Below, piece after piece: positions 953 through 12,529 of a stretch of 12,529 nt of DNA. The DNA comes from Candidatus Wukongarchaeum yapensis. Lineage in GTDB: Archaea > Asgardarchaeota > Wukongarchaeia > Wukongarchaeales > Wukongarchaeaceae. The stretch's first letter is position 1. Each line of letters begins with the position of its first letter. Made by a program: the position numbers and the translations under genes. Under the pieces are notes generated by a model. It was not told the origin of the DNA. It searched no databases and worked only from the letters and a program-made list of their open reading frames with translations. The stretch spans positions 1 through 12,529 of the forward strand of contig JAEOSI010000042.1 of assembly GCA_016840425.1 (NCBI GenBank). The letters run 5' to 3'.

Positions 953-1936
953 TTATTCTTCTTTTACACCACAAAGCCGTAGAAGTTGTTGCCACTTCCA
1001 ATCTACCCATTTCTGCGTATCATTAATGATATCGTCACGTCGTTTTGGTTTGAACAAATGCCGAAAACGTCCCTGAGTCTTTAGAAACTCCTCCACAGGA
1101 ACCTTATTCTCCTTCTTGATCATCTTTGTTAACCTATACTCACCACAGTCAACTTCGTACAAAGGATACATACACGTCTCCACAGCAAGCTCTGCGATCC
1201 TTATAGTAAGACTACTATCAGCACGCCAACCCAAAGGACAAGGAGAAAAAGCATGAATAAAGGAAGCGTCGTCGCTTGCTAAAGCCTTGCGTATTTTCTT
1301 AATGAAATCCTTAGGATAAGCAACGTTCACAGTAGCAACATATTGAACGTCGTGGGCTGCAGCAATCTTTACAATATCTTTAGGGAACTCAGGCTTACCT
1401 GGAATAACCTTCCCACCGGGACTAGTAGTCGTAGCGGCGCCATAAGGCGTAGCCCCGCTTCTCTGGATACCTGTGTTTTCGTACGCTGAGTTATCGTAGC
1501 AAACATAGGTCAAATTATGCCCTCTCTCAAGCGCCCCGCTTAAAGCCTGGACGCCGATGTCATAAGTTCCACCATCACCACTAAAAGCTATTACGTTCGT
1601 CTTTCTCTTCGGAATTTTATTTTTCCGCATAAGGGCCTTTAATCCCGCTTCGATTCCACTTGCTACTGCGGCTGCATTTTCAAAAGCGCAGTGTACCCAT
1701 GGTGTTTGCCATGCAGTGTAGGGGTAAATGGTTGTACTTACTTCAAGGCATCCTGTGGAGCTCACACAAATACTTGGGTCTTCCGTTGCCATCATTGTAA
1801 ATTTTACTACAAGGGGGGCTGCGCAGCCAGCGCATAAACGATGACCAGCAGCGAGAACCGGTCGTTCTTCAAAAGCCATTTCTCGCCATTTGATTGGTTT
1901 TTCTTTCTTTTTCTCGGTTATTGTTGTTTCTGTCAT
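953..1936 (-). CDS. porB: Pyruvate/2-oxoacid:ferredoxin oxidoreductase beta subunit (TPP-binding), 327 aa
   Basis: GHRLCAGC and GCLEV Fe-S ligand region, FENAAAVASG, TPP motif GDGGTYDIG...YDN, YENTGIQRSGATP, HAFSPCPLGW. GAGGTG RBS upstream of the ATG. Pyruvate versus ketoisovalerate specificity cannot be settled from motifs alone. Confidence 0.93.
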   Translation of the reverse strand: MTETTITEKKKEKPIKWREMAFEERPVLAAGHRLCAGCAAPLVVKFTMMATEDPSICVSSTGCLEVSTTIYPYTAWQTPWVHCAFENAAAVASGIEAGLKALMRKNKIPKRKTNVIAFSGDGGTYDIGVQALSGALERGHNLTYVCYDNSAYENTGIQRSGATPYGAATTTSPGGKVIPGKPEFPKDIVKIAAAHDVQYVATVNVAYPKDFIKKIRKALASDDASFIHAFSPCPLGWRADSSLTIRIAELAVETCMYPLYEVDCGEYRLTKMIKKENKVPVEEFLKTQGRFRHLFKPKRRDDIINDTQKWVDWKWQQLLRLCGVKEE

Positions 1937-1950
1937 TTAAAACACCTCTC

Positions 1951-3132
1951 TTAGAACTCTACTCCTCTGACACCGACCCAAGAAATCTTCGACGGTTCTT
2001 CACCAGTTTTTGCGGTTTCAAAGGCTCTGTCTGCGACTTTTGCGATATCTTCTATCCTGACATCTCTTCCTCCAAGGCCGGCAATAAAACCTTGAATAAT
2101 GGGTCCTCCATTTGATGTGGTGACTTTCACATCACTATATAAGATAGGTCCTGGTGCTCCGAAAGTTATTGATCGGTCGATGGTTGCCGCTACCTTGGCG
2201 CCTTTTAAAGCGTCTCTGAGTTCTTTTTCAGGAAAAGGTCTATAAACATGTACCTGTGCTAGTCCTAACTTCTTTCCTTGTCTTCTGTATCGATCAACCA
2301 CTGTTCTTGCCGTACCGGTTATAGCACCTTGCGTGACTAAGATAACGTCAGCATCTTCTGCATAATACGTGTTTATGACGTTATAATAACGCCCGGTAAG
2401 TTCTCCAAACTCTTCTTGAACTTTTTTAATGGTTTTCATCGAGTTTATCATTACTTGTTCCTGTGCATACTTTAGTTCATAATAACTGTCTTGTAAAGCC
2501 AATGAACCTACGCTTATTGGATCGTCGGGATCAAGAACATATAAAGGATCTCTTGGTGGTAGAAAATCTTCTACTTCCCTTTTTTCCAATGTTTCTACGC
2601 CTTCCAAAGCATGTGATATAATGAAAGCATCTATCCCGTACATTAATGGAAGGGAAACTTCTTTATCTTCTGCGATTTTAAAAGCCATTATGGTTGTGTC
2701 GTATGCAGACTGGCAATCATGGCAGAAAATGGAGATCCATCCAGTGTCTCTGCAGACTAGTTGGTCTTCTAAGCCTGCGTGTATATTAATCGGTGCGCTT
2801 AGCGCCCTGTTAGCCACTCCCATAACAACAGGTAATCGGGCATTTGAAACGATGAAAAGGATCTCAAACATTAAAGCTATTCCCTGAGATGCAGAAGCGG
2901 TAAAAACACGTGCACCGGCTATTGAAGAGCCGTAACAACAAGACATCGCTGAATGTTCTGACTCAACGGGAATAAACTCTGAATCAAGTTCTCCATCATA
3001 TACGAAATCAGCTAAACGCTCAACCATAATCGTTTGAGGCGTAATAGGATATGCTGCAATAACATCCGGGTCGCAAAGTTTAACAGCGTGTGCTATTGAT
3101 TCATCTCCTGTCATTCCAACAATTTCACCCAT
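1951..3132 (-). CDS. porA: Pyruvate/2-oxoacid:ferredoxin oxidoreductase alpha subunit, about 393 aa
   Basis: AYPITPQT, VESEHSAMS, TASASQG, NRALSAPINIH, RPFP, GLGGRD. Start placed at ATG 3132 (MGEIVGMTGDE), preceded by GGAGTG; the ORF track extends to an upstream TTG at 3150. Confidence 0.93.
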   Translation of the reverse strand: MGEIVGMTGDESIAHAVKLCDPDVIAAYPITPQTIMVERLADFVYDGELDSEFIPVESEHSAMSCCYGSSIAGARVFTASASQGIALMFEILFIVSNARLPVVMGVANRALSAPINIHAGLEDQLVCRDTGWISIFCHDCQSAYDTTIMAFKIAEDKEVSLPLMYGIDAFIISHALEGVETLEKREVEDFLPPRDPLYVLDPDDPISVGSLALQDSYYELKYAQEQVMINSMKTIKKVQEEFGELTGRYYNVINTYYAEDADVILVTQGAITGTARTVVDRYRRQGKKLGLAQVHVYRPFPEKELRDALKGAKVAATIDRSITFGAPGPILYSDVKVTTSNGGPIIQGFIAGLGGRDVRIEDIAKVADRAFETAKTGEEPSKISWVGVRGVEF

Positions 3133-3192
3133 ACCGACCCACTCCAACAATCTTCACGATTACGAATAAAACATGGCTTGTTTTTTTCCCTT

Positions 3193-3777
3193 TTAGGAAA
3201 TAACTACTTCATTATAGGCGCGCCTAATTGCTTCAGCGTTCTTTTCCCCGATTTCTCCTGGAAAACGCTTCTTTGTAACCTTAATTATGTTTTCAAGATC
3301 TACGACTTCTGCCGCTTTTATCAAAGCCCCTAGTATGACAGTATTAGTGATGGCGCGTCCAATAACATCGATAGCTATTGAAGTTGCATCCACGACGCCA
3401 ACTTTTATATTAGGATTCAATTTTAATTCCTTTCTAAGTTCTTCTGGTGATTCCTTATAGTTCGATATCAAAACGCCCTTCTCTTCATCTAATCCTGAAA
3501 CAATGGCCTGTCCAAGAATGCCGTAGAGCGTTGGATCAAGGACGCAGACTATGTCCGGATAAACTACTTCACATTTTTCGTAAAAACGGTTGTTGCTTAT
3601 TCTTGTAAAAGCCTGTACCGGTGCTCCTATCCTTTCAGGTCCAAAGGCCGGAAAAGCATGTACATATTTGCCCTGTAGTAGGCCTGCCTCTCCGATTAAC
3701 CGGGAAGCTGTAACCACTCCTTGACCTCCTCGCCCGTAAAACCTGATGTCTATTACGTCTGTTTGAGTTTCACTCAT
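3193..3777 (-). CDS. porC: Pyruvate/2-oxoacid:ferredoxin oxidoreductase gamma subunit, 194 aa
   Basis: IRFYGRGGQGVVTAS, FPAFGPERIGAPV.AFTRIS, PDIVCVLDPTL, NTVILGAL, KNAEAIRRAYNEV. No ferredoxin domain is fused. Confidence 0.93.
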   Translation of the reverse strand: MSETQTDVIDIRFYGRGGQGVVTASRLIGEAGLLQGKYVHAFPAFGPERIGAPVQAFTRISNNRFYEKCEVVYPDIVCVLDPTLYGILGQAIVSGLDEEKGVLISNYKESPEELRKELKLNPNIKVGVVDATSIAIDVIGRAITNTVILGALIKAAEVVDLENIIKVTKKRFPGEIGEKNAEAIRRAYNEVVIS

Positions 3778-3845
3778 GGTTAGCCCGCCTAAACATTTTT
3801 TGAGGAGGTTATGATAAGCTGGTAGATATAGCTTTCTTAAAGCTT

Positions 3846-3860
3846 TTTTATATAGCTTTC
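3846..3860 (-). promoter_or_regulatory. BRE/TATA promoter candidate for the por cluster
   Basis: The minus strand reads GAAAGC-TATATAAA, a purine-rich BRE-like element followed by a TATA box, about 70 nt upstream of the porC ATG. Confidence 0.55.
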
Positions 3861-3985
3861 CCTTTCTTAAAACATTTAAAATAGTAAATGTAAACTTTAA
3901 TTACGATTTTGACCTAAATATTTTTCATCTTTTAATAATTCATCCCTCCTAGCTTCGGCTTAAAATTTATCTTCGGTGAAAAGTT

Positions 3986-6643
3986 TTGACTATCGCTTTT
4001 GCAGTTTACGGAAAAAAAGAAGAGGAGATTTTCTCAAAATTTAAACCCTACGTCTTTCAGTGGTTTCAGCAGTCATTCTCCTCTATGACGCCGCCTCAAA
4101 GCCTAGCTTTGCCTGAGATTCTTAACGGTAAAAATGTGCTGATTAGTGCGCCGACTGGCAGCGGCAAAACATTGGCCGCTTTTTTAACGCTTCTAAATTT
4201 TTTATTTGATTTAGGGGAAAAAGGAGAGTTAAATAATGAGATCTATGTTGTATATGTTTCCCCGTTAAGGGCGTTAAATAATGATATCAAGCGAAACTTG
4301 ATGGAACCACTAAAAGGCATACGTAAAATTACCGAAGAAAAGGGAATAGAATTACCGGAAGTCAGGGTAGCTGTTAGGACGGGTGATACTCCCCAATCTG
4401 AACGATCAAAAATGCTAAGAAAAACGCCGCACATACTTATAACGACGCCTGAAACCATTGCAATTGTTTTATCCGCTCCGAAATTCCGCGAGAAGTTAAA
4501 ATCGGTAAGATTTGTGGTTGTGGATGAGATCCATGAACTTGCAGACTCCAAACGAGGTGTACACCTCTCGCTTAGTCTTGAAAGACTCCAAGACTTAGTC
4601 GGAGACCATCAAATAGTGAGAATCGGATGCAGCGCTACTCAAGCACCGTTAGAAGAGATTTCAAAATTTTTAGTAGGTTTCGAAACAGAAGAAAAACCCA
4701 GAGATTGCGTGATTGTTGACGCGTCCATGATAAAACAGACAAAAATAGCCGTTCAAACACCTGTAAAAGATCTCATTTACACCCCGGAAGAAAGCTTGAG
4801 CCATGCCTTATACGTGAACCTCGACGAACTTATAACTGATCATGTTACAACATTGGTTTTTACAAACACACGGAGCGGAACAGAGCGAGTAGTATTTCAT
4901 TTACAAGACATATTTGGAGAGAAATATGTTGATAACATTGGTGCCCACCACTCTTCCTTATCTAGGAAACATCGCTTAGACATCGAAGGAAGACTGAAAA
5001 AGGGAGAGCTTAAAGCAGTTGTCTGTAGCACCAGTCTAGAACTGGGTATAGACATCGGTTATATCGACCTCGTTGTTCAATTAGGGAGCCCGAAAAGCGT
5101 TTCAAGATGTTTGCAGAGGGTTGGCAGGTCAGGTCATAAGCTTCATGAAATCTCAGAAGGCGTAATAACAGTGCTTGATAGGGATGATTTAGTCGAATGT
5201 ACAGTACTTGGGAAAGCAGCTTTAGAAGGGAAAATAGACCGAGTTCAGATACCGAAAAACTGTTTAGACGTTCTTGCCCAGCAACTTCTTGGAATGGCAA
5301 TAGACCGTAGGTGGGAGGTAAAAGAAGCCTTTGAACTAGTCCGACGATCGTATTGTTATAAAGACCTTGATTTTGAGGATTTTATCAATGTTTTAGAATA
5401 CTTAGCTGGAGAGTATGTGGAGCTTGAAAGTCGAAGGGTTTATGCTAAGATATGGCTTGATAGAGTTGACGAAAGATTTGGTAAGAGAGGGAGACTGACA
5501 AGGGTAATATATTATACGAATGTTGGCACGATTCCTCAGGAAACTCAGGTTGATATTTTTGTTAGACATGGAAAGAAAAAGAGTTGGGTTGGGTCGATAG
5601 ATGAAGGGTTTCTTGAGAGGCTTTCTCCCGGGGATATTTTTGTGCTGGGGGGTAAGACTTGGAAGTTTAAGTATGCGAGGGGTTTAAAAGCGTATGTTAG
5701 CCCTGCTCCTGAACGTCGCCCCAGTATTCCTAGTTGGGTTTCAGAAATGTTGCCTTTGAGTTTTGATTCTGCTTTGGAAGTTGGGCGTTTCAGGAAAAAA
5801 GTTTCTCAAAAAATTCTCAGAGGAGAAAAAAAGGAAAAGATTGTAGAATGGATAAGCGGAGAATTTCCTGTAAGTCTTATAGAAGCAACAAACATTGTTA
5901 ACTATTTTATTGAACAGTTGAAGTTTACAGGAGGGATCATGGCAGATAATGAGACGCTCGTAGTTGAAACCGTTGTTGATGACATGGGCAGGCAAAACAT
6001 AATCTTTCATTCCCTCTTTGGGAGACGCATAAATGACGCTCTTTCAAGGGCTTACGGTTACTTCTTGTCAAAAATAGTCAGAGGAAACGTGAGTATAGCC
6101 ATAAACGACAACGGCTTCTCATTAACCATACCAAAAGGTCTCAAAGTATTAAACGTAGAAGACTTTGTTCGAAAAATAACTAAGGACAACTTAGAAAATC
6201 TATTAAAAGAATCTTTAGAAAAAACAGAGCTCTTCAAGAGAAGGTTCCGTCACTGTGCAACAAGAGCATTAATGATCCTAAAACAGTATAAAGGTCATAA
6301 AATCTCTATAGGAAGACAAACTATGAACGCGCACTTTCTAATAGCTGCAATAAAACAGATTAGTGAAAACTTCCCCATTCTTAAGGAAACTTTCAGGGAA
6401 ATTGTTGAGGATCATATGGATATAATCAACGCTAAAAAAGTCCTAGATTGGATGGAGGAGGGAAAATTAAACGTGGTGGTTTTCGAAGGAAGTGACATAC
6501 CAAGTCCTTTTGCCCATAATTTATTCGCAATAGGGCAAAGTGATGTAATCCTCATGGCGGACAGAAAAGAGCTCCTTGAAAGACTTCATAAACAAGTACT
6601 CGAAAAAATAAAAGCGCAAACGCAAGAATTAACTAATATATAG
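3986..6643 (+). CDS. lhr: Lhr-family SF2 ATP-dependent helicase (archaeal Lhr-core, aLhr2-like), 885 aa
   Basis: Q motif TPPQ, Walker A APTGSGKT, SPLRALNND, RTGDT, ITTPET, Walker B DEIH, SAT, FTNTR, HHSSL, STSLELGIDIG, QRVGRSGH. Lhr-typical DVLAQQLLG, GTIP and C-terminal PSPFAHNL. TTG start supported by GGTGA at 3975-3979. Confidence 0.95.
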   Translation: MTIAFAVYGKKEEEIFSKFKPYVFQWFQQSFSSMTPPQSLALPEILNGKNVLISAPTGSGKTLAAFLTLLNFLFDLGEKGELNNEIYVVYVSPLRALNNDIKRNLMEPLKGIRKITEEKGIELPEVRVAVRTGDTPQSERSKMLRKTPHILITTPETIAIVLSAPKFREKLKSVRFVVVDEIHELADSKRGVHLSLSLERLQDLVGDHQIVRIGCSATQAPLEEISKFLVGFETEEKPRDCVIVDASMIKQTKIAVQTPVKDLIYTPEESLSHALYVNLDELITDHVTTLVFTNTRSGTERVVFHLQDIFGEKYVDNIGAHHSSLSRKHRLDIEGRLKKGELKAVVCSTSLELGIDIGYIDLVVQLGSPKSVSRCLQRVGRSGHKLHEISEGVITVLDRDDLVECTVLGKAALEGKIDRVQIPKNCLDVLAQQLLGMAIDRRWEVKEAFELVRRSYCYKDLDFEDFINVLEYLAGEYVELESRRVYAKIWLDRVDERFGKRGRLTRVIYYTNVGTIPQETQVDIFVRHGKKKSWVGSIDEGFLERLSPGDIFVLGGKTWKFKYARGLKAYVSPAPERRPSIPSWVSEMLPLSFDSALEVGRFRKKVSQKILRGEKKEKIVEWISGEFPVSLIEATNIVNYFIEQLKFTGGIMADNETLVVETVVDDMGRQNIIFHSLFGRRINDALSRAYGYFLSKIVRGNVSIAINDNGFSLTIPKGLKVLNVEDFVRKITKDNLENLLKESLEKTELFKRRFRHCATRALMILKQYKGHKISIGRQTMNAHFLIAAIKQISENFPILKETFREIVEDHMDIINAKKVLDWMEEGKLNVVVFEGSDIPSPFAHNLFAIGQSDVILMADRKELLERLHKQVLEKIKAQTQELTNI

Positions 6644-6660
6644 CTCACAGTTTGATTTCC

Positions 6661-6678
6661 TTTCTTTTTTTTAAAAAA
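6661..6678. terminator. Bidirectional oligo(T) terminator candidate between lhr and the metallophosphoesterase
   Basis: TTTC-T8-A6 in the 62-bp gap between two convergent stop codons provides a T tract on each strand. Confidence 0.55.
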
Positions 6679-6705
6679 GATAAAAGGCTCTAATAGTCTT
6701 TTATT

Positions 6706-7482
6706 TTAATATTGGAGTATTTTTTGCCACTTTTTTAGCTTTGGAAACCGAAATGCGCCTGCTTCTATGTCAAGGGCTATAGCTTCAAGGTTGCCTATAT
6801 CTACAATTTTTTTATCGCGTAATATCGGGGATAAAAACTCACTCTGAGGTTGCATATTTACCTCTACGCCTAAAACAATTGGGGATAAAGCAGGTTGAAC
6901 CACTATTTTCTTCCCCACCTTAGTCTCGCCAAAAAGTACTGCAGGAACTTTTATCTTCACATAAACATCATCTTTTAACCCTAAAGCAGGATGCTCATGA
7001 GCAATTACTATGCATTCTACTTTTGTTGAAAAAAGATCCAAAGAAAGTTCGTGTCCGTGGGCAAATCCATATTTGCCAATCGTTAAATAGGACGATATGA
7101 ACTCTACATTTTCAAATTTCCGAATGATATTAATAAGATAATTATCATGGTTACCTCGCACAATGATGATCTTTTTAAACCGTGTTAAAAGTTCTTTTAG
7201 AAGGGTTTCTATTTCTTTTCTTTCTTGGAAAGAGAAGCGCCCAAATTCATGTTTTAAATCACCGTTTATAATTAGAATATCGGTGTTCGTTTTTTCAAAC
7301 CCTTCCACCAAAAGTTTCATAATAATGTTGAATTGGCTTTTAGGGTAAAAAATTCCTTTATTAGCTAAAGCCTCTTCATATCCTAAATGTAGGTCTGCTA
7401 CGGTTATCGCGTTTATACTTGGTATGTAAAGTATCGGAAGCCCGTTAATAGTTTTAATGTCAAGGGTTTCAAATAACTTCAA
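6706..7482 (-). CDS. Calcineurin-like metallophosphoesterase of the Lhr-associated type, 258 aa
   Basis: All five metal-binding motifs are present: ADLHLG, NGDLKH, RGNHD, HGH, AHEHP. TTG start with GGGGA upstream. Adjacent to lhr. Confidence 0.9.
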   Translation of the reverse strand: MKLFETLDIKTINGLPILYIPSINAITVADLHLGYEEALANKGIFYPKSQFNIIMKLLVEGFEKTNTDILIINGDLKHEFGRFSFQERKEIETLLKELLTRFKKIIIVRGNHDNYLINIIRKFENVEFISSYLTIGKYGFAHGHELSLDLFSTKVECIVIAHEHPALGLKDDVYVKIKVPAVLFGETKVGKKIVVQPALSPIVLGVEVNMQPQSEFLSPILRDKKIVDIGNLEAIALDIEAGAFRFPKLKKWQKILQY

Positions 7483-7552
7483 AAGTGTATATCCCCTTAC
7501 CCCAAAATATGCCTTATTTTATTAAAAATTGACGTTATTTGATTTTATTTTT

Positions 7553-8554
7553 TTATTTCGATGGTTTTTCTGCAAGTATCACAAAATTTTCTAAAATGGT
7601 AAGATTTTCAAAACCAACCTTTTCTAGTTGTTGTAAAAGACTTTCTTGAGAAGGAAAACCTCGAAAATCTTGTTTTACTAAGAGAAGTACTTCATAGGAA
7701 AATGGTTCGTGAGGCTGTAGTCTTAAAGGCTGTATCGCTATAAATTTTCCCTCCTCCTCAAGGGCTCCAAAACAAAGTTTTAGGAGATTTTCATAATTTT
7801 TCGGATCTGTGCGCTGAAAAAGCTCTAAACCAAATATTAGACCCGCTTTTGTTTCCGGTAACTCTTCCCAAGGATTTGTTTCAATAAACTCCATCTTTAT
7901 TTCATCTGTTATTCCTAGGTTTGAAAGATTTTCTTTCGCAACAGCTAAAATTTGAGCATCAGGCTCAACGAAAAAAATTTGATCAATTTCTGGAAAAACT
8001 TTTTCCATGGTTATACTGCTCCAACCAGTATACCCAAATAGATCGAATATCTTCTTGCTAGGTATTTCGTGGGCCTTTTCTAAAGCAGAACTTATTAAGG
8101 ACGTGTAAAAGTGGCTTGAGTATATGGCATCCATAATCGCAAGAAATCCCTCCTCATGTCGTATCCTTTCCCCTCTTAAAGCCTTTGGTAAAAATTCCGC
8201 ATATTCTGATAATTTTGATGCAAAAGGCGTGCTTTTTTCTGAAAATAGTCGCTCAAAAGCAGAAATTTTTAGATTGTGACCTTTCCATGCAAATTTGTGA
8301 GATTCTGGTTCCTCAAGCACTCCCAAAATAGCCAAAGTGCGAAGGTAATAGTCAAGTATTCCTAAATCACTATATCCCTTCTCCTTGGCTATTTCAGCCA
8401 CCTTACACGGATCTTTCAAAATAATGTTAAGATCTTCCTTGACCGCAATTTGCGCCAAAGAACGTGTTAAAAAATGCTGAAGACCTTTAAACAGATCTTT
8501 AACCTCTGCGGGGAGAGATCCCCACTTAATCTTCGACTTTACTTTTTTAAACAT
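7553..8554 (-). CDS. Class I SAM-dependent methyltransferase-fold protein with an N-terminal helix/wHTH domain (O-methyltransferase-like layout), substrate unknown
   Basis: N-terminal pattern LKDP.KVAEIAKEKG...LDYYLRTLAILGVL; motif-I-like FDLFGYTG; VEPDAQILAVAKENL; C-terminal LLKLCFGALEEEGKFIAIQ and LLQQLEKVGFEN. Start is ATG 8554 or TTG 8569. Confidence 0.65.
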   Translation of the reverse strand: MFKKVKSKIKWGSLPAEVKDLFKGLQHFLTRSLAQIAVKEDLNIILKDPCKVAEIAKEKGYSDLGILDYYLRTLAILGVLEEPESHKFAWKGHNLKISAFERLFSEKSTPFASKLSEYAEFLPKALRGERIRHEEGFLAIMDAIYSSHFYTSLISSALEKAHEIPSKKIFDLFGYTGWSSITMEKVFPEIDQIFFVEPDAQILAVAKENLSNLGITDEIKMEFIETNPWEELPETKAGLIFGLELFQRTDPKNYENLLKLCFGALEEEGKFIAIQPLRLQPHEPFSYEVLLLVKQDFRGFPSQESLLQQLEKVGFENLTILENFVILAEKPSK

Positions 8555-8623
8555 GGCAGTTCCATCCAAAACCTCGAATATAGCACTTTAAACCCCTTTA
8601 TTATTCTATCAAAGGTATTCTGA

Positions 8624-9370
8624 TCATGGGCTTGTTGGGAGACCTTCAGAACTTAAAGTTATCACCATATCGCGCATAGCAAGATGATGTAAAAGTTCTA
8701 CCATAGTTTTTTTATCTATAGAAAAAGCTTCTGAGATCTCATGTAACGTGTGGGATTTTTTGTTCAAAGTTTTCATCATCTCATCTATTGTAGAAAGCGG
8801 TATGTTCAGGCGAGAGAGGGACATGTGAAAGCTCTTAGATTTTGAGTAAAATCTTTCATAAGCGTTTAAACCCTCATCAGTTACCGTGTACTTGTAAAGA
8901 TTTTGACTAGTAATCATTGTTCTTATCGCTGGAGATGGAACTTTTCTATATAATATAGGTTCAAGCCACTTAAAAACAGTTTCTCTTGCAGGATGAAAAG
9001 AAGTTAAGTCGCCTAATTCTTCACTTTCATCCATTTTTTCGATATAGTCGTAAAAAAGAGTTTCAAACTCCTCAACCAATGAAGCTAAAGCTTTCCTAAT
9101 CTGAACAACCTGAGAAAACTCTAGCGGTTTAGCTTTACATATCACTATAACCTGTAAACGATCAAAACGCTCCGCAATAACGTTTTTATCCTGAACATCT
9201 AATAACCGTAAGGGCTCAGAAGACGTCAAAGCTTCTTCCAAAAAAGCCTCAGCCGCACTAAGCAAACGACTAATAGTCCCCGGATCACTTTTCTCCTTAC
9301 CAAAAGTATAATGAAAAACCTTAAGACCATCATCACGAACAATGAAAAGCTCTTCCAAGATGTTTTCCAT
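8624..9370 (-). CDS. Longin-like domain protein with a C-terminal winged helix-turn-helix, about 248 aa
   Basis: Residues 1-140 follow the longin pattern: ELFIVRDDGLKVFHYTF, helix ISRLLSAAEAFLEEAL, three strands, helix IRKALASLVEEFETLF, then GDLTSF. The C-terminus TLHEISEAFSIDKKTMVELLHHLAMRDMV is wHTH-like. Start placed at ATG 9370; the ORF track's upstream extension looks non-coding. Fold assigned by eye. Confidence 0.65.
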   Translation of the reverse strand: MENILEELFIVRDDGLKVFHYTFGKEKSDPGTISRLLSAAEAFLEEALTSSEPLRLLDVQDKNVIAERFDRLQVIVICKAKPLEFSQVVQIRKALASLVEEFETLFYDYIEKMDESEELGDLTSFHPARETVFKWLEPILYRKVPSPAIRTMITSQNLYKYTVTDEGLNAYERFYSKSKSFHMSLSRLNIPLSTIDEMMKTLNKKSHTLHEISEAFSIDKKTMVELLHHLAMRDMVITLSSEGLPTSP

Positions 9371-9513
9371 ACTTTCGCTCAAAAACCGCCTCTCCAAACG
9401 CCTTAGAATCACATAAACCCTTAAATAATAACAACTATTTTTTAAAACCCTTAGGAAAAACAATTACTATAAATAATAATAAAATTAAAGATTTATAAAA
9501 CATTGTAGATCTT

Positions 9514-10143
9514 TTACCCTTCTCCTCCTTCATTTGAGATCTTCTGGTCAGGAGAAACCGCTACCACCACTTGAGCAGGTTTCAACACCTTAGAATAAAG
9601 CATATAACCTCTATTAACCTCCTCAACTATGGTGTTCTCAGGGATTTCAGAGGTAAAAACACGAGAAACCGCTTCATGCCTCAACAAATCAAAAGTCGCT
9701 TCAAAAGTCTCAATCCTTGAAACCCCTTCACTCTTTAAAAAACCCCAAAGTTTATCAAGAACCATCCGCATGCCCTTAACAACATTCTCAGAATCCTTTT
9801 GATCACTACTTGCTTCCACTATACGTTCAAAATCTTCAAAAATCTCGATTAAACCCAAAATAAGCCTTTCTTTTAACTGAACTGAGAGACTTTCCTGCTC
9901 CTTCTGAACCCTTTTTAAAAGATTTTCATAATCTGCTTGAGCCCTCTGCCAATTTTTAAGATATTTTTCAGCGAGCTTTGACTTCTCCTCCACCAAAACT
10001 TCAAGTTCTGAAATCCTCCCATCTTTTTCAAGAAGAATCTCTTCTAATCCCTCCTTCTCCATGACCTCTTTTCCTAATTCCTTTTTCTGTTTCTCCTCTT
10101 CAAGAGGTACCTCTTTTTCCGTTTCATTCGTTTCACCAGACAT
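9514..10143 (-). CDS. grpE: GrpE nucleotide exchange factor, 209 aa
   Basis: Acidic N-terminus, long coiled coil, RAQADYENLLKR, KGMRMV, FD...HEAV, GYML..KVLKPAQVVV. Strong GGAGGT RBS at 10155-10150, 6 nt before ATG 10143. Confidence 0.92.
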   Translation of the reverse strand: MSGETNETEKEVPLEEEKQKKELGKEVMEKEGLEEILLEKDGRISELEVLVEEKSKLAEKYLKNWQRAQADYENLLKRVQKEQESLSVQLKERLILGLIEIFEDFERIVEASSDQKDSENVVKGMRMVLDKLWGFLKSEGVSRIETFEATFDLLRHEAVSRVFTSEIPENTIVEEVNRGYMLYSKVLKPAQVVVAVSPDQKISNEGGEG

Positions 10144-10268
10144 GGAGAAACCTCCTAAAACCAAAATAAAATATACCAACAAAGGGTTAAAAGAAGTTTT
10201 TATTTATTATCTTTTTCCAACTCTCTCCGCCATTTCTTTTACAAACATACTAAAACAGCGGGTCACTA

Positions 10269-10811
10269 TTACCCTTGTCCCTTTTCAGCTTCTTCCACCA
10301 TTTCTTTTGCAAGCATAGTAAAACATTTGGTCACAAGTTCCCCTGTTTTAGCAGAAGTCTCAAAAAAAGGGATACCAAGCTTCTTCGCAAGACCTTCTCC
10401 TTCCTTAGTAGTTACTTCCCGTTGATCCTCCAAATCAATCTTATTCCCCACAAGAAGTAACGGAATCCTTTCACAATGCTTTTTAATCTCCTCAAGCCAA
10501 TTACCCACATTTTCAAAACTTTTCTTATTAGTCACATCATAGACTATAATACTGCCACGGGCACCCCGAAAATACATTGGACGAATATGACTAAACCGTT
10601 CTTGCCCTGCAGTATCCCAAACGCTTAATTTGACCTTTTTACCGTCTGCTTCGACAATTTTAACAGCGAAGTCAACTCCAATTGTCATCCGGTAAGACTC
10701 GCTAAAAGTGCCTGTAGCCCACCTCATAGTGACCGCAGTTTTCCCTGTGGCGGCATCTCCCACAACAATTACCTTGAAAAGGAAAGCTACGTCATTCTTT
10801 GTTTTACTCAT
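10269..10811 (-). CDS. Rab-like small GTPase (Ras superfamily), 180 aa
   Basis: G1 GDAATGKT, G2 Thr in YRMTIGVDF, G3 WDTAGQE, G4 GNKID, G5 ETSAK; GAGGAG RBS. No C-terminal cysteine prenylation motif. Confidence 0.95.
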   Translation of the reverse strand: MSKTKNDVAFLFKVIVVGDAATGKTAVTMRWATGTFSESYRMTIGVDFAVKIVEADGKKVKLSVWDTAGQERFSHIRPMYFRGARGSIIVYDVTNKKSFENVGNWLEEIKKHCERIPLLLVGNKIDLEDQREVTTKEGEGLAKKLGIPFFETSAKTGELVTKCFTMLAKEMVEEAEKGQG

Positions 10812-11002
10812 TTCTTTTGCTCCTCTTTTAGTATTGTGGATATAACGACTTTGCTAAAATATGTTATGTTTTTTTTGTTTCTTCCTCCTTTTTTGTTTTT
10901 TGGTTTTAATATCAAAATCGCTAAATCTTGTTTTTGAAGGCTTTGATGCGTAAAAACTTTTTTAGTGTGTATTAAGTCTTTTTTGAGATTTTAGTGGGGG
11001 GT

Positions 11003-11018
11003 GTAAAAACTTTTTATT
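11003..11018 (+). promoter_or_regulatory. BRE/TATA-like element in the divergent Rab/HEAT intergenic region
   Basis: GTAAAAACTTTTTATT, about 90 nt upstream of the HEAT ATG. A second GTAAAAACTTTTT lies at 10950-10962. Confidence 0.4.
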
Positions 11019-11105
11019 AGGTGCAAAGTAGTGGTAATTGGATCAAAGTGGTCTCTATAATCCTTCATGTTATGTGTAATCTGTTGTCAAGAGGGATGTG
11101 TGAAT

Positions 11106-12122
11106 ATGGGAACATCCAATAATTCACTTAAGAGAAAAAAAGATGCCTTGAAGAAAGTTGAAATTCTTATTAAGGATTTAAAACATGAAAATCCCAATCG
11201 TCGGGAGAGGGCGGCGAAGATTCTTAGTGAGATAGGGGATGCGAGGGCTGTTGAGCCTCTTAAAGAAACACTAAAAGATAAAGATTCAAATGTTCGAAAG
11301 AATGTGATTTGGGCACTTGCTATGATAGGGGGTCCAAATGTCGTAGAACCGCTAATACAAATGTTAAAAGATGAAAATAGAAGTGTTCGAGCGAGGGCAG
11401 TAACTGCTCTTGGTAAGATTGGGGATTCGAGGGCAGTAGAACCATTAATACAAACTTTAAAGTATGAAGATAGTGTTTTTCGAGGGGAAGTAGCAATTGC
11501 TCTTAGTAAGATGGGGGACTCAAAGGCTATTGAACCCCTCGTTAAAATACTCAAGGACGAAAGAAGTGATGTACGACTTGTGGTAGCAGAATCTCTTCAA
11601 AATCTAGGGGGTGAACCAGAAAACGATACGGATAAAGCTTATTACTTTATTGCATTGAAAAATTGGAGTGAATTGGTTAGATTAGGAGAAGCGGCTGTTG
11701 AACCTCTTATCTGGGCTTTAAAAGATGCAGATTTTAGTGTTCAATGGGAAACAGTAGATGTTCTTGGGGAGATAGGGGATGAGAGAGCTGTTGAACCTCT
11801 TATTCAGTTATTAAAAGGGGAACTTGATGTAAGAGAGGGTTCAATAAAGGAACGTCCAGACTTTTGGGAACCAGATTTTGAATTTCAAGAAAGGATAGCT
11901 GAAGCTATAGGGAAAATAGGCGGTAAAAAGGCGGTAGAATTACTTATTCAGGAATTGGAGGATAGTTCTAGTTATGTTAAAGAGTGGGTAGCTATGAGTC
12001 TTGGAGAGATTAGAGATTCGAGAGCTATTGAACCTCTAATACAGGCTCTAAAAGACGAAGATGAGGAGGTTCGTATAGCTGCGAAAAAAGCTTTAGAGAA
12101 GATCAAGGGGAAGAAAAGCTAA
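11106..12122 (+). CDS. HEAT repeat protein (PBS lyase HEAT-like / HEAT_2), about 338 aa, 9 repeats
   Basis: Nine units of about 31 aa with consensus AVEPLIxxLKDxxxxVRxxAxxALGxIGD. Start placed at ATG 11106 (GAGGG at 11091-11095); the extension from 11067 (MLCVICC) is unlikely to be translated. Confidence 0.92.
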   Translation: MGTSNNSLKRKKDALKKVEILIKDLKHENPNRRERAAKILSEIGDARAVEPLKETLKDKDSNVRKNVIWALAMIGGPNVVEPLIQMLKDENRSVRARAVTALGKIGDSRAVEPLIQTLKYEDSVFRGEVAIALSKMGDSKAIEPLVKILKDERSDVRLVVAESLQNLGGEPENDTDKAYYFIALKNWSELVRLGEAAVEPLIWALKDADFSVQWETVDVLGEIGDERAVEPLIQLLKGELDVREGSIKERPDFWEPDFEFQERIAEAIGKIGGKKAVELLIQELEDSSSYVKEWVAMSLGEIRDSRAIEPLIQALKDEDEEVRIAAKKALEKIKGKKS

Positions 12123-12165
12123 ATACTAGTTAATAAACTTTCTTAAAAGATAAGAGAGGATATAT

Positions 12166-12179
12166 CTTTTTTTAAAAAA
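12166..12179 (+). terminator. Oligo(T) terminator candidate after the HEAT gene
   Basis: C-T7-A6 about 45 nt after the stop codon, the same C-T7/8-A6 pattern as at 6664-6678. Confidence 0.45.
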
Positions 12180-12233
12180 TTAGTTTACTTTCCACACCAA
12201 TATGCACTCCATAGATCCCAAAAAAGCCTTACA

Positions 12234-12298
12234 ACTTTCTATACCGATAGATACGCGGCAAACCAGTTTACTTTCTATACCGATAGATGCACGGCAAA
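12234..12298. repeat. Two 29-bp direct repeats at 36-bp period, each with a TCTAT-N4-ATAGA palindrome
   Basis: ACTTTCTATACCGATAGATACGCGGCAAA (12234-12262) and ACTTTCTATACCGATAGATGCACGGCAAA (12270-12298), 27/29 identical. A degenerate third copy starts at about 12182. Confidence 0.85.
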
Positions 12299-12412
12299 AA
12301 TCGTCCCTAATCTACCTAAAAACATTTAACTTATTATAAAAAAAGAGTTAAAAGTGTTTTAAATTTTAAAAGTCTTTTTTACTAAACTTTTTGTGTGAAG
12401 GTTGAAAGGATT

Positions 12413-12529
12413 ATGTTTGCAAAGGATGATTCTTTGACAAAGGTTGTTGAACTACTTAGGGAACTTGAGAATAAAGCTAATCTATATGTAGCTTTCTTGG
12501 TGACTGTAGAGGGTTTAAGAATAGCTACC
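12413..12529 (+). CDS. Probable roadblock/LC7 (MglB-like) domain protein, N-terminal 39 aa, truncated by the window edge
   Basis: Not in the ORF track. MFAKDDSLTKVVELLRELENKANLYVAFLVTVEGLRIAT matches the roadblock start: an amphipathic helix, then a strand and the (D/E)G turn. The frame is open to the end of the window. Confidence 0.6.
   Translation, partial: MFAKDDSLTKVVELLRELENKANLYVAFLVTVEGLRIAT

Follow-up and report, generated by a model that had tools for sequence, protein, structure and literature searches.

The 12,529-nucleotide (nt) stretch of DNA analyzed here, referred to as the window, is an entire contig (C249) of the genome of Candidatus Wukongarchaeum yapensis, and the locus in its last 3.9 kb (8624-12529) is a mosaic around a conserved module of two genes. 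The first gene of this module encodes a longin protein with a winged helix-turn-helix (wHTH)-like end, hereafter longin-wHTH, and the second encodes a methyltransferase-like protein. We hold this description with high confidence for the observations that it comprises, namely, the co-occurrence of the two genes as a pair whose open reading frames (ORFs) often overlap, the adjacency of a Rab gene to the pair in two families, the relocation of grpE, and the variability of the HEAT gene. An earlier note on this DNA had suggested that the genes for a Rab-like GTPase, GrpE, longin-wHTH, a HEAT solenoid, and a probable roadblock protein in this span encode a GTPase with its regulators and a scaffold, possibly tied to chaperone status. 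All five genes were found where that note had placed them. However, the conserved partner of longin-wHTH, the methyltransferase-like gene outside the flagged span (7553-8554, minus strand), had been overlooked.

The assembly (G000) comprises 2.16 Mb in 277 contigs and is 92% complete. Its relatives and its gene content, with cofilin, numerous Rab-like GTPases, and roadblock proteins, identify it as an Asgard archaeon. The last 137 nt of the window are identical to the start of contig C91 (overlap), and C91 continues the window because the sister genome (G001) and a third genus member, represented by a JGI contig (L142), hold the same genes in the joined order. Orthologues of longin-wHTH were surveyed in 400 genomes, among which 33 Asgard families were sampled, and full-length orthologues were present in 7 of these families. 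Among the genomes named below, G010 belongs to a different Asgard family, f3 denotes the Odin-like family, and f32 and f25 denote other families.

The longin-wHTH and methyltransferase-like pair

The longin-wHTH gene (8624-9382, minus strand) encodes 252 amino acids (aa) when read from the TTG at 9382 and 248 aa when read from the ATG at 9370. The TTG at 9382 is probably the start, because the codon at 9370 is ACG in the sister genome, while the TTG and the preceding GGAGAGG are kept. Neither a Pfam nor an NCBIfam family was assigned to the protein, and no Pfam family reached its cut-off in 18 members of the longin-wHTH family, with one Fuz_longin_1 match at an expect value (E) of 0.03. A profile search of PDB sequences with the longin-wHTH alignment also returned nothing significant. 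The fold was recognized from an AlphaFold2 (AF2) model with a predicted local distance difference test score (pLDDT) of 78, in which residues 5-140 follow the longin order of two strands, one helix, three strands, and two helices. When residues 1-142 were compared with solved structures using VIA-align, Z-scores of 13.0 were obtained to sedlin (2j3w_A) and synbindin (2zmv_A), with a root-mean-square deviation (rmsd) of approximately 3 Å over 123-131 residues. Further TRAPP chains scored 11.2-12.9 (TRAPPII chain 7e2c_H, 12.9), and the Lokiarchaeal longin 8yqg scored 10.7. Moreover, the top Foldseek matches listed for the model were all longin/roadblock platform proteins.

In the model, three helices and a short hairpin make up the C-terminal 60 residues, which gave MarR-, ArsR-, and IclR-type as well as PF0610-like matches, all of which were sub-threshold. 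It is reasonable to regard this part as a putative winged helix, although the call is weaker than that of the longin domain. The earlier note was thus right about the longin fold, and its wHTH part was recovered on the model and through sub-threshold matches only. An Atlas feature search with the C-terminal part scored no higher than 0.84, which can serve only as a lead, and in the Atlas structural neighbours, HTH_47 or TrmB domains accompany a longin-like fold. Over their last 70 residues, most orthologues are basic, with an isoelectric point (pI) of 8-10, and those of this genus are near neutral (pI ~7). In an alignment of 18 longin-wHTH sequences, Gly15 is invariant, and the next residue is Leu, Arg, Gln, or Ser and never Pro, i.e., a GP motif is missing. 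The sole invariant Arg of the family is R233 within the C-terminal wHTH-like part, so that the longin domain carries no conserved arginine finger. The N-terminal longin domain by itself is very widespread in archaea, matching 3307 representative proteins (E up to 1e-3), and it often lies near the C-terminus of ~750-aa proteins and also in giant proteins with CARDB or MG2. One such protein is encoded in this genome on contig C145 (2622-5039).

The methyltransferase-like protein (333 aa) was modelled by AF2 with a pLDDT of 89, and the model combines an N-terminal wHTH-like domain of the dimerisation type with a class I Rossmann methyltransferase fold. The best Foldseek match was BchU (1x19; E 3e-14), followed by many full-length O-methyltransferases (OMTs) of family 2. 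At least 500 matches were obtained at E <= 0.001, and all 50 matches listed were methyltransferases. At the sequence level, the Pfam family PF00891 was matched with 16.2 bits, below its gathering cut-off of 22.3, and TIGR02716 was matched weakly. Relatives of the protein in G010, G150, and f32 have clear methyltransferase Pfam domains. Motif I reads DLFGYTG in the window copy, NIGVGTG in G010, and G-C-K/R-T-G in most orthologues, and most orthologues retain the acidic residue that follows strand 2. Judged from these motifs, catalysis by the window copy is uncertain.

The pairing of the two genes is the best conserved property of the locus. Across 14 informative genomes from seven Asgard families, the longin-wHTH gene is directly followed by a co-oriented methyltransferase-like orthologue in 13 (G000, G001, four genomes of f3, G010, two genomes of f32, G144, G147, G148, and G149), and the same pair was found on the metagenome contigs L143, L145, L146, and L149. 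The called ORFs of the pair overlap by 14 nt in f3 and by 20 nt in f32 and JGI contig L050. In the window, they are separated by a spacer of 69 nt (8555-8623, minus strand). The two genes also co-occur at the genome level. All 12 tested genomes with a longin-wHTH orthologue contained a methyltransferase orthologue scoring at least 364 bits, and none of the 13 genomes that lacked longin-wHTH gave a methyltransferase score above 185 bits. In the f25 locus (L092, G147, 5899-10060), approximately 1.3 kb without a long ORF lies between the pair genes, and a second longin-domain protein of ~340 aa then follows. Additionally, in one lineage (L143/L144, 5001-7507), the pair is followed by a co-oriented gene for a 140-aa protein with a weak HEAT_2 match, which may be a coincidence, HEAT genes being numerous. 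No report of a longin/methyltransferase pairing was found in the literature searched, the coverage of which is incomplete.

Genes around the pair

The Rab-like small GTPase (10269-10811, minus strand; 180 aa) matches PF00071 at E 2e-62 (210 bits). As the earlier note had read, its motif set is full, with G1 GDAATGKT, switch-I Thr43, G3 DTAGQE including the catalytic Gln, G4 NKID, and G5 SAK. The closest solved relatives are Rab10, Rab8A, and Rab1A (E ~2e-49), and the top PDB matches are all Rab10/8A/1A/1B/Sec4/Rab35 (E 2e-49 to 1e-46), with a Thorarchaeota Rab at 1e-43. The protein ends with EKGQG and has no Cys in its tail, i.e., the C-terminal Cys prenylation motif of eukaryotic Rabs is absent.

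Evidence connecting this GTPase with the pair was obtained from G010, in which contigs C298 and C74 share an exact 127-nt overlap that gives the order Rab, longin-wHTH, methyltransferase. The Rab gene of G010 lies 48 nt upstream of the longin-wHTH gene, and grpE is missing from this arrangement. The G010 Rab and the window Rab are reciprocal best matches with 59% identity, compared with 45-48% for paralogues. Since the pair proteins of G010 and this genus are only ~25% identical, the retained Rab adjacency is unlikely to be neutral. The arrangement in G010 thus appears to lend the Rab link moderate comparative support, and the GTPase may be a nucleotide-switch input to the pair. Overall, the likelihood that we assign to a link between Rab and the pair is slightly short of even. 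When a complex of Rab and two copies of the longin domain (residues 1-145) was predicted, the score was 0.00 for a mark of 0.32, which weighs neither for nor against binding. The longin-wHTH tree left the sisterhood of this genus and G010 unsettled, both being on long branches, and no relative was found when the G010 protein was searched against the metagenome contigs.

The paralogues of longin-wHTH are accompanied by another class of P-loop nucleoside triphosphatase (NTPase). In f32, a second, paralogous longin-wHTH/methyltransferase pair also stays together, and in this duplicated form the longin-wHTH part is fused behind a KaiC-like ATPase. On G313:C10 (L139), and also on G312:C1, the fusion is a protein of 495 aa (2422-3909), which is encoded 20 nt upstream of a paralogous methyltransferase gene of the S-adenosylmethionine (SAM) type (3930-4949). 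Protein P0012 is likewise a KaiC fusion. More distant paralogues (336-377 aa; L054, L055-L057) stand in a row with a ~132-aa protein and a KaiC-like ATPase, and in L055-L057 (6001-12109) this row is followed by a 1301-aa protein. The longin-wHTH family is therefore recurrently associated with P-loop NTPases, these being a Rab in two families and, in the case of the paralogues, KaiC-like ATPases. Neither a Rab fusion nor a methyltransferase fusion was present among the 153 relatives retrieved.

Between the Rab and longin-wHTH genes lies grpE (9514-10143, minus strand; 209 aa from the ATG at 10143), which matches PF01025 almost over its full length (positions 6-164 of 165; E 2e-36, 125 bits). 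The spacer between Rab and grpE (10144-10268, minus strand; 125 nt) contains AT-rich, TATA-like tracts and an AGGAGG ahead of the grpE ATG, and its column identity of ~84% with the sister genome is uninformative on function. The spacer between grpE and longin-wHTH (9383-9513, minus strand) is 131 nt long, with AT-rich tracts and the GGAGAGG ahead of the TTG start. The gaps of 125 and 143 nt with TATA-like tracts that the earlier note had given were both read directly, the latter being counted from the ATG at 9370.

The gene is the single grpE copy of the genome, and the order Rab-GrpE-longin is confined to this genus (G000, G001, and L142). Of 27 grpE loci from elsewhere in Asgard, 25 have the gene immediately upstream of dnaK, among them loci of the Odin-like family and of a genome from the same order. 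Here, dnaK is found at the end of contig C32, apart from grpE. Because grpE is the sole copy and is dnaK-adjacent in 25 of the 27 other Asgard loci, the simplest reading is that a housekeeping gene was relocated between Rab and longin-wHTH, apparently in this genus only. GrpE acts on Hsp70, not on Ras-type GTPases, and no connection between it and the Rab emerged here. Hence, a role of GrpE as exchange factor for the Rab, considered as a candidate, was rejected, as it has no basis in the mechanism of GrpE and the position of the gene is genus-specific. The tie to chaperone status raised in the earlier note is likewise best explained by this relocation, and its synteny check across Asgard returned the Rab-grpE-longin order only in this genus, a result close to what the note itself had named as refuting its proposal. 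On C32 (1-2438), dnaK is cut by the contig end and is preceded by hsp20 in place of grpE, with a divergent gene of the ArsR/MarR winged-helix type upstream.

The two genes on the opposite strand proved to be real as well. The HEAT gene (11067-12122, plus strand) encodes a HEAT-repeat protein of the PBS-lyase type with 351 aa (PF13646, E 1.6e-63). Its counterpart encodes 123 aa in the sister genome, and L142 has no such gene, so that its roadblock and Rab genes lie side by side in divergent orientation, ~250 nt apart. Paralogues with 65-75% identity at the DNA level were found on many contigs (e.g., C131, C228, C34, and C4), which makes this an expanded family. Only the 5' part of the roadblock/LC7 gene lies in the window (12395-12529, plus strand). 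When completed on C91, it encodes 138 aa and matches PF03259 at E 1.8e-13 (50.5 bits against a cut-off of 23), and the Robl_LC7 protein 7f8m is matched in the PDB at E 2e-9. The gene is divergent from Rab, and it is near Rab within this genus only; neither a HEAT nor a roadblock gene was found near the best Rab matches in G002, G010, G003, and G312. From these comparisons, the HEAT and roadblock genes were judged to be lineage-specific neighbours rather than parts of the module. The genome holds nine roadblock genes, and a separate Ras-like gene with flanking roadblock genes is located on contig C125. In the spacer between the HEAT and roadblock genes, a 29-nt direct repeat occurs in two copies (12234-12262 and 12270-12298; period 36) with the core CTATACCGATAG. 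This repeat was not found in G001 or L142, and one further copy of the core is present on contig C270.

Proposed mechanism, alternatives, and known systems

In the mechanism that we propose, longin-wHTH would be an adaptor that assembles with the methyltransferase-like protein and uses its longin platform to dock a P-loop NTPase, i.e., the Rab-like GTPase in this genus and G010 and a fused or adjacent KaiC-like ATPase in the paralogues. The nucleotide state of the NTPase could then gate the activity, target choice, or location of the methyltransferase. If the methyltransferase is degenerate, as motif I of the window copy hints, it might report SAM status instead. We give this explanation as a whole, including both the observed layer and the mechanism, about an even chance of being right. 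In its boldest form, which is improbable, the set would constitute a three-part archaeal switch of a P-loop NTPase, a longin/winged-helix adaptor, and an OMT-fold methylator or SAM sensor, by which nucleotide and methyl-donor status would be read together. Such a switch would follow a logic like that of SAMTOR-GATOR1-Rag and would have arisen within Asgard.

Several observations weigh against the proposed explanation. As regards the pair, its genes are on different contigs in G150, and a different gene lies downstream of longin-wHTH on the short metagenome contig L053. In the window copy of the methyltransferase-like protein, motif I is non-canonical and the Asp of motif III is replaced by Asn, and this genus sits on a very long longin-wHTH branch. 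As regards the GTPase, the pair lacks a Rab neighbour in five other families and on those metagenome contigs whose flanks are long enough, and none of the five loci returned by an alignment search contains a Rab. Within this genus, grpE and the AT-rich spacers on either side of it stand between Rab and the pair. Furthermore, this genome holds 19 Ras-like ORFs and 13 ORFs that fit the longin-wHTH profile. With these numbers, chance alone would be expected to give ~0.8 Ras-longin pairs within 3 kb, and one was seen. Considered by itself, this genome thus shows no co-location beyond chance, as the earlier note had cautioned. Therefore, the comparative evidence must carry the case.

In an alternative view, the pair is a self-contained unit of enzyme and adaptor, and its Rab neighbour in this genus and in G010 reflects neutral or coincidental synteny. 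The absence of Rab from the other five families and sufficiently flanked contigs, the chance-level proximity within the genome, and the lack of a Rab fusion among the retrieved relatives all agree with it. However, reciprocal-best Rabs flank orthologous pairs in two families in spite of the low identity of the pair proteins, longin domains are known GTPase platforms, and the adaptor paralogues were repeatedly joined to another P-loop NTPase class. On balance, coincidence is a rather unlikely account of the Rab gene. In a different view, longin-wHTH is a DNA-binding transcription factor, whose longin-like domain senses a signal and which controls the methyltransferase gene in the manner of ArsR-ArsM, with small GTPases having no role. 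The wHTH-like C-terminus with its sub-threshold MarR, ArsR, and IclR-type matches, the basic end of most orthologues, the Atlas neighbours with HTH_47 or TrmB, and the fact that regulator-first operons are common would suit such a factor. Yet the end is near neutral in this genus, and the overlap of the ORFs points to matched protein amounts, which fits partners of a complex better than a regulator. The KaiC-ATPase fusions and neighbours and the Rab neighbour in two families also point to protein-protein coupling, and in NPRL2/3 and their relatives among eukaryotic longin proteins, winged helices serve as modules that bind proteins. A transcription factor is thus distinctly unlikely.

The earlier proposal, by which the five genes together make up a single GTPase switch unit comprising regulators, a scaffold, and a chaperone link, was considered very improbable. 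It draws on five real genes within 3.9 kb, on the retention of Rab-GrpE-longin-methyltransferase and the divergent roadblock gene in three genus members, and on the regulation of small GTPases by roadblock and longin folds (PMC10933270). Moreover, a conserved Asgard operon of roadblock, Rab-like, and DENN genes is known (10.1101/2020.10.19.343400). Against this, the order is genus-specific, and grpE, here the sole copy, is found beside dnaK in 25 of 27 other Asgard loci. In G010, the longin-wHTH and methyltransferase genes follow Rab with no grpE among them. Close relatives carry a shortened HEAT gene or none, the best Rab matches in G002, G010, G003, and G312 have no roadblock or HEAT gene nearby, and the target of GrpE is Hsp70 rather than a Ras-type GTPase. 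Of a GTPase encoded with its regulators and a scaffold, the longin-Rab part gains some comparative support from G010, whereas grpE, HEAT, and roadblock are lineage-specific. The five-gene reading was attractive but mostly accidental, and it is corrected here. The genus-specific relocation of grpE also cautions against reading function into single-genome neighbourhoods of genomes rich in gene families.

Longin and roadblock dimers have been reviewed as docking platforms for small GTPases (PMC10933270). According to the same review, the GTPase genes of MK-D1 are generally not in operons with roadblock or longin genes, and the pairing of Asgard GTPases with partners from genome layout is described as hard. 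The conserved Asgard operon mentioned above encodes a LAMTOR1-like roadblock protein, a Rab-like GTPase, and a DENN-domain protein (Liu et al. 2021; 10.1101/2020.10.19.343400). It is similar to the present locus in that a Rab-like GTPase is encoded beside roadblock/longin-superfamily proteins that are proposed to regulate or dock it. However, no DENN match was obtained by Pfam scans of the window genes or the scanned C91 neighbours. In addition, the roadblock gene here is divergent and limited to the genus, the longin partner is methyltransferase-like, and the Rab link is seen in two families only. The MglA-MglB system, in which a Ras-like GTPase and a roadblock GTPase-activating protein (GAP) share one operon, also places a small GTPase gene near a roadblock/LC7 gene. 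Here, in contrast, the two genes are on opposite strands with the HEAT gene between them, and the GTPase is Rab-like with a catalytic Gln.

For GATOR1 NPRL2/NPRL3 and SAMTOR, the likeness consists of a longin domain followed by a putative winged helix at the C-terminus, in association with a protein of the class I methyltransferase fold and, for some lineages, with a small GTPase. SAMTOR co-purifies with GATOR1-KICSTOR (PMC12507694), and GATOR1 chains were among the weak structural matches (Foldseek: 9o5a_C, E 2.5e-3, template modelling score 0.29, rmsd 14; VIA-align: 8fw5_C, Z 7.5, rmsd 11.8). Nevertheless, no NPR2/NPR3 Pfam match was obtained at E up to 0.1, and the methyltransferase-like protein had no Bmt2 Pfam match at E up to 0.01, its fold being that of OMT family 2. 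A GP motif before the second strand and a conserved arginine mark the GAP-type longins FLCN, NPRL2, and SMCR8 and one Asgard longin class (PMC12290439). Both features are missing here, and the GTPase is Rab-like rather than Rag-like. The resemblance would thus be one of logic only, i.e., an analogy.

The best structural matches of the longin domain were the TRAPP subunits sedlin/TRAPPC2 and synbindin/TRAPPC4, and the neighbouring GTPase is closest to Rab1/8/10, which recalls TRAPP acting with Rab1/Ypt1. However, other longin families score only 1-3 Z units lower, a family match at the sequence level is lacking, and no Bet3/TRAPPC3-type gene is present in the window. The winged-helix extension and the methyltransferase partner are also without a TRAPP counterpart. 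The methyltransferase-like protein resembles OMTs of family 2 (BchU, DnrK, MmcR, and ASMT) over its whole length, including the N-terminal winged-helix domain of the dimerisation type and the Rossmann domain. It differs in that PF00891 remains below the cut-off and motif I of the window copy is non-canonical, and no case of a family-2 OMT gene obligately paired with a longin gene came to light in the literature searched. Compared with the usual grpE-dnaK(-dnaJ) operon, the grpE here is full-length and single-copy but detached from dnaK in this genus only. Among the dozens of Asgard GTPases, longin proteins, and roadblock proteins, one longin protein has thereby gained a firmly conserved partner with a methyltransferase fold. 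The result is a small, soluble, and testable set of proteins around a eukaryote-like longin protein.

Other features of the window

Neither an Rfam family nor a tRNA was detected within the window, and a promoter scan with a sigma-70 model, which is not applicable to archaea, remained at the level of shuffled sequence. Three co-oriented genes for a 2-oxoacid:ferredoxin oxidoreductase (POR gamma; POR_N/PFOR_II alpha; thiamine pyrophosphate (TPP)-binding beta) occupy 953-3777 on the minus strand. They are followed by an Lhr-type helicase gene with DEAD, WH_Lhr, and DEAD_assoc domains (3986-6643, plus strand), which is convergent with the gene of an SbcD-related archaeal phosphoesterase (TIGR00024; 6706-7482, minus strand). 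The helicase was called as two genes in L142. On C91 of this genome (1376-1885, plus strand), approximately 1 kb past the roadblock gene, a cofilin/ADF homologue is encoded (PF00241, E 2.3e-21), and it stays in the same neighbourhood in G001 and L142.

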